A stretch of DNA of 63,128 nucleotides, filler included, from Collodictyon triciliatum (Eukaryota): assembly GCA_043381765.1 (NCBI GenBank). It is 9 parts of 9 records of this genome, joined end to end, with 100 filler letters (N's around TTAATTAATTAA, not from the genome) between each part and the next. Parts side by side here need not be neighbours in the genome. Positions count along the whole stretch, not along the records: positions 49,626 to 56,459 come from JBHJMP010004376.1; 8 more parts are not named here. One strand, 5' to 3'. Below, one piece after another: positions 49,801 to 55,800 of the stretch. The notes under the pieces are model-generated. The model did not search any database and was not told the origin of the DNA. It worked only from the letters and a program-made list of their open reading frames with translations. Position 1 is the first letter of the stretch, and each line of letters starts with the position of its first letter. Both the position numbers and the translations under genes were made by a program.

Positions 49801-52800
49801 ATGGTGGCCTTGATGTCATTCTTACTCCGAGTAAATTCTCTAGATAGGTCAGTATTATTTTTCTTTTCATTTGGGTAAGTTGGGTTAGCCTGATGAGTCT
49901 TTAAAAATGTAATGAACATCGTCATTGAAACTATTATCAAACTTGGTTGTGTTAATACATATGAAAATTAAGTACTGAAAAGATTGAAAAAGTTCCTCCT
50001 CACAGAAAATTTGAATGATTTTTTTCATTAGGTGCTCTTATTCCAAAGAAACACTGTTATCTATGAGAATAGAGGATGCTTTCAAAATTCTTTTGTCATT
50101 TTACGATGAATCCTGCCCTCATATGATAATTGGATACAATGTGCCAGCGAATTTCTCATCCACAGGGTACGATGATGAGAATCTACATCCAAGTATAGTC
50201 GATTATGGATCGAAAGCGATTAAAGAAAGGCATAATTATGAGCTGTATACTGGAAAATCTTTGTCCTCAATGGAAAAATCGATCTTATTCGATAAAAAAC
50301 AACAGTCGAGAAGTTTTTCGGATATTGGAGAAAATCCTTCTCAGTATGAGCTTCTTACACAATTCTACGACTTACTTGGCGGAGAAAGCTGGATTGAAAA
50401 CACTGGATGGAAAAATAGTGGAACCCCTATTTGCAATTGGTATGGAATAGACTGTTATAGAGGCTGTCCAATTGGAGACTATAGAGTGAGTATCCCATAT
50501 TTTGAATCAGATTTCTTTTAAATCACATATCAACTCATTATCTTACGCAAATTGCAAGGTAGAATAAAAAATCAAATGAATGAGAAATACGAAAAAAATT
50601 AATCTTTAGAACAACATGTGTCCCGTAATTGGAATTTTATTACTGGACAATAACCTCAAGGGTGACATCGAATCCGTGTCGACTATTTTGGAGCAGCTCC
50701 CAAATTTAATTGACCTTGATTTCAGCTATAATTTCATCTATGGAACTTTACCAAATCCAACCCTCCCGAATCTTCTTAACTTGAATTTGTATACGAACGA
50801 AATCAAAGGCTCCATACATGATTTTCAAGGGATTCCAAATATCGAGGATTTAGATATTAGCGGGAATAGTTTGGAAGGATTAATTCCTGACTTTGCTAGT
50901 ATACCATTAATAAGAACCTTGAATATTGGTAAAAGCAACAATATCAAAGGTGAATATATACTCTCCTCTTTATAAATTTAAATATAAAATAAATGACTGA
51001 AGCCCTTTAATAGGAGCCTTGCCAAACTTTTCAAAAATAGTCAATATCCAAGTTCTTGGTATTTTTCAAACTCATGTGTCTGGTAATCTTGATTCTCTTT
51101 CAATTTTCCTAAGATAAATTCGATTGAGCGAGGGAACCATGTGTCAATTTTTCCAAGGCAGTAATTTTTCAAAAAACATATGTAGTCCGCTATATTATAC
51201 TATAATTACATATATAGGAACAATTCCAAATTTCAATTATATTCCGAACATCAAAGTAATCAATTTTTCAGCCAATAGATTGGGTGGTCAGTATTATTCG
51301 AATTAAACCATATATGCTTGAGTTTTTTCTAAGTAAAATGATTGACGATTAGGGATGGTTCCTGATTTCAGTAACATGCCATGGGTACAGCTATTCACTT
51401 TGTCTACAAATCAGCTTATTGGTAACTTTTAACACGTTATATCGACAATTTTCTACACTACTAACCAAGAATGATGGCAAGGTTCTGTCCCAGATTTTAG
51501 ATTTATCAGAAATATTGACTACATCGACATTTCGTTTAATGAAATAAGCGGTAAGTAATATTTTCGCTGTAAAAAATCAGAAATGTAAGGGCCAAATACC
51601 TTTTTTTATTATTATTATTATTGATATGTAAATTAATTCTTTTATATGTTATTACAAAAATCTGGGAATCAGGGACCATACCGAACTTCAATAATACGAC
51701 GAGCATCGGATTGATAAATTTATCATACAATCAACTAAGTGGTGAGTGGTAAAAGGTCTCAAATAATGTATTTAATTTTTCGTGGATAGAATTTATTTAT
51801 AAGTGAATATAAATAGGCACATTGCCAGATTTTAGCAGTATTCCACGGGTCAATTTGATAAACATCGTTAGTAATAAAATTAGCGGTTAGTCTTTTTTTA
51901 CAAGGGATCTACTCAAATTTTATTTGGCGATATTTTCATGGGCTTTATTCCGTTTATTAGGATCAGTTCCGAATTTCCAACATATCGTGAATCTACAAAT
52001 GATTGATATGCTCAGCAACGAATTTATTGGTGAACAAATGTAACAACTGGACACCCAAGTGCGTCCTTGGGATCTGTGATCTGATTCTAAGACCCATCTC
52101 GGAATTCTCCAAGTCTGTTCTTAGAATCAGTCCAAAGAACCACCGTGGACCGCTCCAGGATCGTTCTCAGAAACCTCCCCTGAACCCTTCGTCCAGGGGA
52201 TATTTAACGAGTCCGTCGACTCGTTAATAGGTTGAGAATCATAAAGCAAGTCTATAGCAGAATAAAAGGACATCCCCTTACAACAAAATTAATATTGTCA
52301 GATTTTTCTTTTCATTTAATGTCATGCCATCGGTGAAAAAATGAAACAAAGCTTATATTTTGTTCAATCGAATAGGAGACATACCTGACTTTTCTTTTCT
52401 TCCAAATTTGAGATTAATCTCGATAAGCGGCAATAAATTGACGGGTATCTCAAAAATTGCTTGTTGATTTATACTTCTGATCCCCCTCCTCTACTAATGA
52501 CCTTAATGATTTCTATTCAGGCACAGTTCCAAACTTTACTTTCCTTCAGAGTGTCAACATCGTGGATTTTTCTGAAAACTATTTAAACGGTGATTGAAAT
52601 ATTGTAAAGAATAATTATTTATCTGGGCGATGACTCAATGAATTCATTATCTTCAAAGGAACAATACCCGATTTCAGGAATTCTCCTAATATCAATTGGA
52701 TTCTGCTAAATTCAAACAACATTACTGGTTTGAAAAGTCTTAATTTGTGTTTATTTTATCTACAAAACTCATTCATTTTCCCCTATATTCGATTCAGAGT

Positions 52801-55800
52801 GCACAATTCATTCACAATATACTTAACAGGAACCATTCCTAAATTGCATCACACTCCTTTTGTTAGCTTATTGTTCCTTTCCAACAATAATATTCATGGT
52901 GAGATAATGAAAAATTGAAAGGAGTACAGCTTTCTGTCATATGATCTGCCCGCTAATTTTCTTTTTGGAATTTATCAGGAACCATTCCTGATTTCGAAAA
53001 TTCTCCGAATATGTTTTGGTTGGTTCTATCCAATAACGAACTTGAGGGTAATGCAAACTTTAATCTCTTAAAAAACGCGAGAAAATCGTAACTTAAAAAA
53101 AAAAAAATCCAGGAACTGTTCCGAATTTTAGAAGCATTCCTGAAATGAATTGGTTTGATCTCGGAAGCAATCGGCTTAATGGTTGATATTACAAAACTTG
53201 TGTAGAGTTATTCAAAAAAGCATGTATTTTGATTCTTGTAAATTCTATTTTCCTATAGGAACTATTCCTGACTTTGATAACTTTCGTTATCTCATATACA
53301 TCTACCTTAATGGAAACGAGTTATCAGGTGGGCTCATCAGATGCTTTTATTGTAAATCAAAGACACTTACTTATTATTTTACATAAAGTAACCAATCTCA
53401 ATTAGGAACAGTGCCTGATTTTAGTTTTATCCCGGATGTTATGTTAATTGATATATCAGATAACAACTTAGAAGGTTTATTTAATTCATGTTTCTATCAT
53501 ATGCAATTTTATTAAATTTCGAAATATAACAGGGAGCTTACCAGAATTTACAAACTTAAAAATCCTTGAAACGTTGGACATTTCAAGAAATAAATTCAAT
53601 GGTAAGTCGATTAAATATCTGAATCCAATCGAGTATGAAACTTACAATTTTTTGTTTTTGTTTTTCAGGCACAATCCCCCAGTCTTGGAGATTTGAGAAA
53701 ATGAAATACTTTTCGGCTTATGATAACCAGTTGAATGGGAGAGTCCCAAATTTTGAAAACTGCACAAATTTGATAGAAATTATACTATTCAGAAATCGTC
53801 TCCATGGTCCCTTGCCATCTCTAAAATTACCTAAATTGACAAATTTGGACTTGAGTGAAAATGAAATTATAGGATCTATTCCATTTGATTTGGATATCCC
53901 TTCTATCGAATACCTCGACATATCTAGAAATATGATGAACGGAACTGTCCCAGAGATATTTGAAATGCTTAAACAACTTAAGTTGCTCACATTATCTTAC
54001 AACAATTTTACAGGGACCATGCCAATAAGATTCTGGAATCTGCGGAATTTAGCTTCAATAGATTTAAGACATAATTCATTCTCTGGGGATGTAGGTGACT
54101 TTATCGTGCCTGGCTATGGGGATTTTAATTTTTTTTTACGAAAACTTGTTCTTGGACCACAATAATCTATACGGAGAGCTCAACAGAAGGATATTTTTCT
54201 TTGTGGGAAATTTAAGGATACTAAGCTTAAAAAACAATAAAATTACGCATTTAGGAGAGCTTACAAACCTCATGAAATGGACCTCTCTTGAACTATCCAT
54301 GAATCCCATCATAGGAACCATTCCTGAATCATACAGTCGATTTACGAAGCTTGAGTATTTCGGTTTGGTGAACACTTTGATGAACCATGGTGACACTAAT
54401 TTTCTTCCTAGCTTCATGAATTATGCAGCACCGTTCAGTTTGGAAGACGAATCAAAACTCTATCTATGCCCTTCTGTTGTCTCAAATTCTGGATTGGTAA
54501 ATATGATTGTTAATATAAATCCAGACTATTATGATTTTGAGTTTTGTAAGTGCTTACCCGGATATTTTGGTTTTGGAAAAACTTGTGTTCAATGTCCGAA
54601 AGAATGTGAATGCATCGATGGGGTAACAATGAAGCACTGTCACGCTTCACCAAACGTGACTTCAGTGACGTCCATTCTACCATGCCCAAGACCTGATTCA
54701 TGCGACTTATCAGTGCCAAATAAAACATCAAATTCTAACGCTACAGGTACTGTAGCCAGTTTATGTCAAGATGGTTATGAAAATCGTGCATGCTCAAAGT
54801 GCAAAGATGGCTTCGGAAACCAAGGGAGATCATGCGTAAAATGTGACAAACCAACCACATATTCTACATTGATTTTTGGTACCATAGGATTCTGCGCGTT
54901 TATTATTTATCTGTATGTTTCTGAAAGTCCAACATCAGGTACGGTAGATTCAAAGCAAAACCATGATTACATTTTTTTAAATTAGCATTTAATATCTATA
55001 CTTAGCTGAAATCAGGATCGTATTATTTCACATGCAAACGCTCTCCATTCTTTCTTCTGTATTTGTGGGATCTAATGACACGAGCACCTTTATCGATGTA
55101 TCATCCTCAATCGGTTCAATTCAAATTCCTAATATTTCATGTGCTTTTCTTACAAACGATGTATTTGATTCACTGCTGTTGAGTTTTCTTAGGATACCAT
55201 TTATCATCATTTTGAGTTCAGTTTTCTATTATTTTGGAAATGGACGCAGAAAGAATAAGGCATCATATACATGATTAAAAAATTCATATATTTCTGCTTG
55301 ATAAGCTATAATTATGCATAATGATGGTGTCCCTTAGTATAAATTGATAGCCCAATTTTTCACTCATATAAACCATTATTAGGCGGTCTTCATTTGCTTA
55401 AACTTTTTGTTCTTCATATACTATTCGGTTGCCAGAGAAGTATTTGGTATTTTTGGATGCACCGTTTTCGATGAAGGAGATGGTATATGGTATCTTAATA
55501 ACTCTCCTTGGATTCAGTGTAGTCCATCCACCGAAGAATATTACAAATTGCTTGCATTATCTGTTCCAGTTTTTGTGTTGTTCTTGGTTGGGTTGCCTGT
55601 TTTTTCTTTGTGGAAAGTAATAAAATTGTCGGAGAAATCTGGATATGAGGCAGCAGCACGATATGGATTCCTATACTTGCCATACAAAGAGGTTAACATA
55701 ACATATTATCTAGGGTCTCCATATACTTATCAACTAATCTGGATCTCTTATCTGCATTTTTAGAACTTTAAGTACTGGGAATTTGTCATAATTACGCGTC

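Follow-up and report, generated by a model that had tools for sequence, protein, structure and literature searches.

An old array of 16 uniform 69-nt leucine-rich-repeat exons in a receptor-like gene of Collodictyon triciliatum

The window analysed here, a 63,128-nt stretch of Collodictyon triciliatum DNA made of nine joined records, carries a receptor-like gene on the + strand at 49801-56254 (positions count along the window) with a product of ~1,390 aa. From N- to C-terminus, the protein consists of a plant-type leucine-rich repeat (LRR) cap, ~31 LRRs of 23 aa, a Cys-rich stalk resembling DUF7630 and a polytopic membrane domain of ~10 helices. A putative first coding exon, read from the sequence, lies at 49801..49848 (start codon and short hydrophobic N-terminus, with a donor GT at 49849), followed by an open frame at 50032..50485 (acceptor AG at 50030-50031, likewise read from the sequence) that holds the N-terminal region and the N-cap, the latter matching LRRNT_2 at 18.2 bits, under the Pfam cut-off of 20.7. 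Contigs of two runs, X1 and X2, span 50000-50575, and X1 record 1 has 142 nt upstream of 50029 that are absent from 50000-50028. Downstream, a multi-repeat exon of ~5 LRRs ending in phase 1 (50610..50949; LRR_8, LRR_4 and LRR_1 matches and frame continuity) precedes the array described below, after which a large exon (53669..54938; LRR matches and homologues) encodes ~10 LRRs, a C-terminal cap, the Cys-rich stalk and the first membrane helix. The remaining membrane-domain exons are 55006..55259 (joint skipping 67 nt, GT..AG), 55383..55691 (preceded by a GC-AG intron, 123 nt long and skipped by joints of both X1 and X2, whose acceptor is canonical in the GC..AG placement only), 55764..55883 (joints in X1 and X2) and the last exon, 55958..56254 (joint and open frame, stop codon at 56252-56254).

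X1 is cDNA, with 13 introns spliced out, and its loose ends match the SMART template-switch oligo. In the window, a T run ending at 54129 has one surplus T that breaks the frame of exon 53669..54938, as might be expected if the gene model were an artefact, its 69-nt units being chance AG...GT segments or part of a pseudogene. However, X1 lacks one base at 54129, and the exon is thereby put back into a single frame; the full model has one stop codon, at its end; 7 of the 13 differences between X1 and the window are synonymous; and homologues are found down to E = 5e-117. Together with the agreement between the spliced cDNA contigs and the model, the missing T rules out an artefact or pseudogene, which we regard as extremely improbable. 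In Diphylleia rotans the homologues make up a large family, 21 of the 30 clusters looked up being from this species, and further members occur in Rigifila and Planoprotostelium.

The centre of the ectodomain is encoded by 16 consecutive + strand exons, each of 69 nt, preceded by AG, followed by GT and in phase 1-1, so that in 16 of 16 the terminal G and the first two bases of the next exon make up a split Gly codon. Exons 1 to 4 lie at 51014..51082, 51218..51286, 51353..51421 and 51482..51550, exons 5 to 10 at 51673..51741, 51817..51885, 51961..52029, 52376..52444, 52521..52589 and 52659..52727, and exons 11 to 16 at 52830..52898, 52979..53047, 53113..53181, 53259..53327, 53406..53474 and 53533..53601. 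Every exon encodes one 23-aa LRR, G-x-[IVL]-P-[DN]-F...N-x-[LI]-x, in which all 16 units keep G1 and P4 and 15 keep F6 and N20. A sequence-only reading of this DNA had described just such an array, flanked by LRRs on large exons, in the gene of a surface receptor; all 16 units fit, the flanks are the two large exons given above, and the product is a membrane receptor-like protein. Its further point, that any subset of these symmetric cassettes can be removed or duplicated in frame, follows directly from the 69-nt length and the 1-1 phase. In a neighbouring WD40 gene, taken as a control, the many repeats are not parted from one another by introns but occupy a pair of long open frames, 40100-41833 and 41817-42902.

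Canonical donors and acceptors are present at all 16 exons, and X1 contigs contain nine of the predicted GT..AG joints: 51082/51218, 51286/51353, 51421/51482, 52898/52979, 53047/53113, 53181/53259, 53327/53406, 53474/53533 and 53601/53669. These are 8 of the 15 internal array junctions plus the 3' boundary junction, all exactly as predicted, so that exons 2, 3 and 12 to 16 are joined on both sides, exon 4 on its 5' side only and exons 1 and 11 on their 3' side. The contigs thus cover 9 of 17 junctions, the other seven internal junctions and the 5' boundary having no contig, and exons 5 to 10 are defined by their AG/GT sequence. None of the joints listed from the assembled X1 contigs skips an exon, all nine being consecutive. 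From these 9 of 17 junctions, the array exons look to be spliced constitutively in genomic order, and combinatorial splicing is unsupported; at the same time, rare or minor isoforms are invisible in assembled contigs, and the idea of splicing-generated diversity is therefore not refuted by them.

Uniform arrays of one LRR per exon are already known elsewhere. In brown-algal ROCO genes (Zambounis et al. 2012, PMC3341825; Teng et al. 2024, PMC11378527), 'type I LRR exons' each hold one LRR in a uniform 72 nt, described as phase 2. Introns at these loci contain LRR exons that have been inactivated or inverted, and local duplications of recent date and splice variants are reported as well; Teng 2024 illustrates a 16-exon example. 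The likeness to the 72-nt exons drawn in the sequence-only reading is apt, as both systems have symmetric exons, a plant-like consensus (G-x-x-P...LxxLxLxxNxL) and a candidate role as recognition receptors. They differ in exon length and phase (69 nt and phase 1 in Collodictyon) and in the proteins encoded, cytoplasmic ROC-COR GTPases in brown algae and, in Collodictyon, a membrane protein with a Cys-rich stalk and ~10 helices. In Tetrahymena (2019, PMC6564038), LRR exons of exactly 90 bp follow one another in long arrays, in phase 2 and with extreme intron-phase bias; the authors read this as tandem duplication of exon-plus-intron units and held the feature to be unique to Tetrahymena. Its young groups show nucleotide-level repeats, long uniform introns and association with the REP retroelement, while the older 'group II', whose introns are short, diverged and of background length and whose nucleotide sequence lacks repeats, resembles the Collodictyon array, despite the ciliate lineage and the difference in length and phase (69 nt and phase 1 in Collodictyon).

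The array exons are anciently diverged. Pairwise nucleotide identity among them averages 50% (39-67%) and shows no neighbour or lag effect, and the repeats within the gene are saturated; at this level no recent duplication is found among the 16 exons. The 15 introns are mutually unrelated, with only chance matches of 8-13 nt, and measure 58-135 nt, similar to the 64-124 nt elsewhere in the gene, apart from intron 7 (346 nt), which contains an inserted dispersed repeat element at 52039..52282. This element has high-depth diverged copies that run on into unrelated sequence in all four runs, is single-copy in the window, has an internal inverted repeat and has no match in Rfam. An nhmmer profile of the 16 exons found no decayed or inverted cassettes in the array introns (none with E < 0.5 on either strand), and the orphan 69-nt cassettes envisaged by the sequence-only reading did not turn up, every match outside the gene in the 63-kb window having E > 5. 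The hallmarks reported for 'dynamic shuffling' in Ectocarpus (inactivated or inverted intronic exons, recent duplications) are thus not found in the array or in the 63-kb window.

At the protein level, the D. rotans homologues also have a 23-aa repeat period, and their central 23-aa arrays vary from 10 to 22 units between conserved flanks. All 21 pairs are collinear in their flank units (z 2.8-6.5), while only 4 of the 21 are collinear in their central arrays (z >= 2.5), the other 17 falling below z 2.5; chains over the whole domain reach z >= 3.1 in 9 of 10 homologues. The low central collinearity may reflect low statistical power, the central units fitting one consensus and the flank units being idiosyncratic, and exon counts of paralogues in this cross-species comparison are inferred from protein repeats only. 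Thus, of the fixed exon number and order across paralogues that was set against the combinatorial idea, the order of the flanks is kept, whereas the number of central units varies and their order is little traceable. Judged from these sequences, the central array can be taken as a module on an evolutionary scale.

The variable central number, the mostly untraceable central order and the large family would also suit ongoing germline exon shuffling or conversion among paralogues with diversifying selection on the concave face, as in the Ectocarpus ROCO model, and so would the recent variation: the coding sequence outside the covered array exons has 13 differences between X1 and the window (6 non-synonymous, 7 synonymous), of which 5 of the 6 non-synonymous ones lie in the LRR or cap part, while 4 of 4 in the membrane domain are synonymous. 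On the other hand, no exon pair exceeds 67% identity, the introns are unrelated, cassettes in decayed, inverted or orphan form are absent from the 63 kb, and X1 does not differ from the window anywhere in the ~610 nt of array exons that it covers, which together make ongoing shuffling quite unlikely. Nor can the variable face on a conserved scaffold be read as a sign of diversifying selection, since variable x positions are common to every LRR protein.

Insect DSCAM produces many isoforms from one gene by alternative splicing, and the array could in principle be used in a similar way, as has been proposed for brown-algal ROCO genes, through regulated skipping or mutually exclusive choice among the 16 exons, with every subset in frame and whole solenoid turns being removed. 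In line with a layout common to the whole family, transcript variants of D. rotans part exactly at the Gly that opens a repeat. P0181/P0182 and P0185 do so immediately after G and P0172 immediately before it, as would be expected if a phase-1 intron within GGN were retained or alternatively used, and P0156 has a 12-aa deletion starting at G, apparently through an alternative 3' site at the unit boundary. Truncated isoforms also break at the intron sites of the window gene's membrane domain. One pair, P0024/P0174, exchanges exactly one LRR unit (Gly-Gly bounds, 22 versus 23 aa), which could be due to mutually exclusive splicing; however, the two also differ at linked point positions downstream, and alleles or paralogues are favoured. 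Multiple LRR-exon splice variants of Ectocarpus ROCO genes, reported by Teng 2024 (PMC11378527), speak for regulated splicing as well. Against it stand the consecutive array joints, the canonical splice sites and ordinary intron lengths, and the lack of any clean skip of one or more 23-aa units in the 18 multi-member D. rotans transcript clusters compared, and we consider it quite unlikely. Still less probable, in our view, is its fullest form, a unicellular predator making many isoforms per gene by regulated skipping or exclusive choice of 16 LRR exons across a family of at least 20 members. If true, it would mean that a splicing-based recognition repertoire arose outside animals, plants and brown algae, its receptor isoforms being connected to a membrane domain of unknown fold, and the one-unit swap of P0024/P0174 would be its first trace.

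Plant receptor genes such as ERECTA and SERK also have a one-LRR-per-exon structure, and plant LRR receptors have the G-x-I-P repeat motif in common with the Collodictyon array. The motif of the plant-specific LRR class, LxxLxLxxNxLxGxIP, is present with 23 residues, whereas the repeat of plant receptors has 24, and the LRRNT_2 cap that stays sub-threshold in the window passes the Pfam cut-off in homologues P0019 (27.0 bits) and P0024 (30.9 bits). In structural superposition, the C-terminal LRRs of one family member from D. rotans find their best matches among the ectodomains of plant peptide-hormone receptors (4z5w_A, Z 14.4, rmsd 2.6 over 139 residues; 5xjx_C, Z 13.4). Unlike plant LRR receptor kinases, in which a kinase domain follows a single helix, the Collodictyon protein has the polytopic domain of ~10 helices instead, and neither kinase nor Roc/COR matches were found in the window's exons or in seven full-length homologues. 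Of 15 family members, 10 show weak DUF7630 (PF24633) matches in the Cys-rich stalk (best E 2.5e-05). For the membrane part, the window's own exons have no Pfam match; PF06011 'TRP' gives weak matches in 3 of 15 members at E <= 1 (best 6.5e-04), and language-model look-alikes include clusters with PF06011 (12-13% of members) or Ephrin_rec_like. The ~10 helices are modelled confidently, with no solved relative of the model found (best VIA Z 6.6, best Foldseek E 0.12). The gene family appears to be undescribed, and a limited literature search on D. rotans leucine-rich repeat proteins and on DUF7630 returned no paper.

Taken together, our results are probably best explained by an old, family-wide, constitutively spliced one-repeat-per-exon layout with in-frame gain and loss of units during evolution, and not by a somatic or splicing-based generator of diversity. 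The array would form the central ectodomain part of a large receptor-like membrane protein, from a family that seems greatly expanded in diphyllatean (CRuMs) protists. Its layout, with a phase-1 intron in the opening Gly codon of each repeat, would be a legacy of the whole family, grown by a presumed tandem duplication of the exon-plus-intron unit, and the 16 exons, joined in genomic order, would yield one long solenoid. The symmetry of the exons would let entire solenoid turns be added or removed during evolution without loss of frame, which would account for paralogues with different numbers of central units between conserved flanks. Ligands would bind on the concave face and signals would pass through the membrane domain.

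To the 72-nt arrays of brown algae and the 90-bp arrays of Tetrahymena, the Collodictyon locus adds a transcript-verified case, at 9 of 17 junctions, with another exon length (69 nt) and phase (1), in a freshwater protist of a lineage near Diphylleia (CRuMs), deep-branching in the eukaryote tree. This strengthens the view that a repeat-per-exon layout arises repeatedly where LRR ectodomains grow by unit duplication, and makes the array a clean system for asking whether such arrays ever serve isoform diversity. Members of the family join a long plant-type LRR solenoid to a DUF7630 Cys-rich stalk and a ~10-helix domain without a solved relative, and the strong expansion of the family in a phagotrophic protist makes it a candidate class of prey- or environment-sensing receptors.

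Each of the 16 starts listed within 51014-53601 opens a 69-nt segment that, in the window sequence, lies directly between an AG and a GT, and in all 16 cases the last base of the segment, a G, forms a Gly codon with the two bases that open the following segment. The sequence-only reading, which had described this arrangement of 69-nt segments, AG/GT borders and split Gly codons, is therefore borne out. On translation each of the 16 segments gives one 23-residue leucine-rich repeat (LRR), with invariant Gly and Pro at positions 1 and 4, Phe6 and Asn20 in 15 of 16 repeats, hydrophobic residues at positions 3, 12, 15, 17 and 22, and variation at the remaining positions. 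A DNA profile built from the 16 exons found weaker copies only in the two large exons flanking the array and no match better than E = 5 in the rest of the 63-kb window; the same profile revealed neither orphan cassettes in the window nor decayed or inverted cassettes in the array introns. The adjacent WD40 gene (40100-42902, + strand) carries its repeats, over 900 aa of them, on two long, overlapping open frames without per-repeat introns, so repeat genes here do not generally place one repeat on each exon. The final feature of that gene, shortly ahead of an N gap, is a Cys-rich C-x-x-C motif.

The gene that contains the array is modelled at about 49801-56254 on the + strand, starting from a predicted first exon at 49801-49848, and encodes approximately 1,390 residues with a single terminal stop. 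A plant-type LRR cap closes its N-terminal region (LRRNT_2, 18.2 bits, below the cut-off of 20.7) and is followed by about 31 LRR units, the 16 single exons supplying units 6-21, then by a C-terminal cap, a Cys-rich stalk and a hydrophobic C-terminus that contains several membrane helices. Of 15 family members, 10 have a DUF7630 match in the stalk and three a weak PF06011 ('TRP') match in the membrane part; full-length homologues share the LRR architecture, some with extra N-terminal NIDO or FG-GAP domains. Domain searches of the window exons and of full-length homologues ruled out both a ROCO gene and a receptor kinase. Just downstream, on the opposite strand, lies a multi-exon gene with ribonuclease-inhibitor-type LRRs (56560-58331, - strand; LRR_6 match at 58023-58331), an LRR class different from that of the receptor.

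When the stalk exon (53669-54938) was used as a query in a word-indexed search among longer proteins, no match was found; the family surfaced in an exhaustive protein search, with 1,446 proteins at E <= 0.001 and 34 at E <= 1e-30. LRR family membership held for 28 of the 30 matches looked up: 21 represent distinct 90% clusters from the transcriptome of Diphylleia rotans, and the others come from Rigifila ramosa (1), Planoprotostelium fungivorum (2), Rhodelphis (1) and metagenomes (3). The stalk exon is 31-41% identical to D. rotans proteins, while its top match overall is a metagenome fragment (61% identity), and freshwater metagenomes contain small shares of the locus. A search for genomic loci of these relatives gave 27 pattern matches with a single protein and 342 with a three-row alignment, none of which was confirmed, and our literature search found no paper on LRRs in D. 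rotans and none on DUF7630. Elsewhere in the window, a TBC1D5-like RabGAP exon (30702-30929, + strand), which served as an approximate lineage marker, shows 70% identity to its D. rotans counterpart. Together with the identities of the stalk exon and the freshwater occurrence of the locus, this points most probably to a freshwater relative of Diphylleia, distinct from D. rotans, as the source of the DNA.

Transcript evidence comes from X1, a public sequencing run in which 36% of the words sampled from 50000-56300 occur. X1 and a second run, X2, are labelled 'RNA?', and no run with the locus is on record as RNA, yet X1 behaves as cDNA: its contigs lack 13 introns of the receptor gene, and their loose ends match what we take to be the SMART template-switching oligo, two observations from which we conclude that the contigs are cDNA. 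These contigs join array exons 1-2, 2-3, 3-4, 11-12, 12-13, 13-14, 14-15 and 15-16, as well as exon 16 to the downstream exon, so that 8 of the 15 internal array junctions and the 3' boundary are seen, all exactly at the predicted GT..AG borders. With these nine joints, the layout proposed from sequence is now backed by transcripts. No exon-skipping joint occurs among the X1 joints listed, in contigs that are blind to minor isoforms and leave exons 5-10 uncovered; contig cover in four runs excludes these same exons and the 5' boundary junction, and is uninformative either way there. Downstream of the array, X1 contigs define four introns, one of them GC-AG (55260-55382), which is seen in contigs of both X1 and X2.

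In the window, nine consecutive Ts at 54121-54129 put the large exon out of frame. One T of this run is missing from an X1 cDNA contig, which removes the only frameshift of the window copy; the extra T probably reflects an assembly error in the homopolymer or a difference between strains. The window also holds nine pairs of 44-N runs 12 bases apart, spaced every ~6,670 bases from 6577 to 56559 and many of them flanked by microsatellites, which look like masking or scaffolding artefacts rather than biology. A gap of 523 Ns occupies 7539-8061, and position 19923 is a lone N.

The array units are strongly diverged, with nucleotide identities of 39-67% between exons (mean 50%), and neighbouring exons are no more alike than distant ones. 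The 15 array introns have nothing in common beyond chance 8-13-mers, and their lengths (58-135 nt, except for intron 7) are similar to those of the gene's other introns. Intron 7 reaches 346 nt because a dispersed, GC-richer element of about 245 nt (52039-52282) sits in it. This element is present once in the window, with an internal inverted repeat, and shows a depth far above that of the gene in all four runs compared, where its copies are diverged and run on into unrelated sequence, one with a poly(A)-like tail. Rfam gave no match at E <= 0.1 across 49900-56400, so the element is not a known RNA family; it is probably a SINE- or MITE-like repeat. Comparison of X1 contigs with the window gave 13 coding differences (six non-synonymous, seven synonymous); all four in the membrane domain are synonymous, and none of the 13 falls in the X1-covered array exons (~610 nt). 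These small numbers do not suggest cassette hypervariability.

Isoforms were compared between members within 18 D. rotans clusters that have more than one member. Truncations and retained introns account for most differences, variants breaking in the membrane domain do so at positions that coincide with intron sites of the window gene, and no pair in the 18 clusters differs by 23-aa units that are cleanly missing, whether one or several. Several variants part at unit borders: P0181, P0182 and P0185 diverge just after the repeat-opening Gly, P0172 diverges just before it, and in P0156 a 12-aa deletion begins at it. This pattern is consistent with unit borders that carry phase-1 introns in GGN, the arrangement found in the window, so the layout is a family trait predating the split of the two species. 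The near-identical transcripts P0024 and P0174 have exchanged exactly one LRR unit, which is bounded by Gly on both sides and measures 22 aa in one and 23 aa in the other. Either one exon was replaced in an allele or a paralogue, or the two exons are used in a mutually exclusive way; point differences linked to the swap further downstream favour alleles or paralogues over splicing.

Among paralogues, conserved N-terminal and C-terminal spacing signatures flank a variable run of 23-aa units, the C-terminal one being exact in 7 of the 11 D. rotans proteins parsed, near in three and absent in P0192. At the protein level, collinearity was scored on variable positions only, against shuffled unit order, and the whole LRR domain is collinear (z >= 3.1) in 9 of 10 homologues. 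For seven of the 11 scored proteins (P0184, P0187, P0190 and P0012 were dropped) flanks and centre were separated: collinearity holds for the flanks in all 21 pairs (z 2.8-6.5), while for the central arrays (10-22 units) only four of the 21 pairs attain z >= 2.5. The one-exon-per-repeat part of the window gene thus corresponds to the part that varies in unit number among paralogues and whose order ceases to be traceable. The pattern is compatible with whole exon units having been gained and lost over long periods, and lower information content of the consensus-like central units could contribute to the missing order.

Plant ERECTA and SERK genes have one LRR per exon. The passages of PMC5296948 and PMC2817689 consulted here do not state this structure. 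Brown-algal ROCO genes, as described in PMC3341825 and PMC11378527, have single-LRR exons of one exact length, 72 nt, with shuffling, positive selection and splice variants; Teng et al. call these exons phase 2 (PMC11378527), and Zambounis et al. call those of Ectocarpus 'highly dynamic' (PMC3341825). Single-LRR exons of one length are the principle in common. In contrast to the brown-algal exons, the present ones are 69 nt long and phase 1, in another lineage and another receptor type, and the features behind the 'highly dynamic' label are absent. The sequence-only reading, correct in its layout, had gone on to propose a combinatorial recognition system, which takes the array too far given its consecutive joints and diverged exons. 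Regulated cassette splicing, in which array exons would be skipped or exchanged between isoforms, could accommodate the P0024/P0174 swap as a mutually exclusive pair, but we consider it improbable. We think it fairly likely that the array is constitutively spliced and anciently built, its symmetry serving the evolution of repeat number and not isoform diversity.

A model of a 625-aa D. rotans family member (mean pLDDT 81) has an LRR part whose best superposition is with ectodomains of plant peptide-hormone receptors (Z 14.4, rmsd 2.6, 139 residues); Foldseek and VIA-wide searches with it returned LRR matches only and none for the membrane domain. Modelled alone, the membrane part (354 aa; pLDDT 85, pTM 0.84) forms about ten helices and an extracellular beta-hairpin, and found no convincing solved relative: the best Foldseek E of 0.12 and the best VIA Z of 6.6 (Hrd1, rmsd 8.1) both lie within the noise for helical bundles. 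Elsewhere in the window, a single-exon open frame of 734 aa with many hydrophobic segments (13719-15923, + strand), for which a word-indexed protein search gave no relative and 7TM-7TMR_HD only a sub-threshold match, may be a lineage-specific membrane protein, and a Gly/Ser/Thr-rich open frame of 380 aa (22938-24080, + strand) begins at an N gap and is without a Pfam match.

The working model that appears most likely for the receptor is one in which the long LRR solenoid would bind an extracellular ligand on its concave face, a rigid Cys-rich stalk would couple the solenoid to the polytopic domain, and that domain would transduce the signal, possibly as a channel-like module. The array is a further case of a known gene architecture, here within an uncharacterised receptor family that has undergone expansion in a deep-branching lineage of protists.
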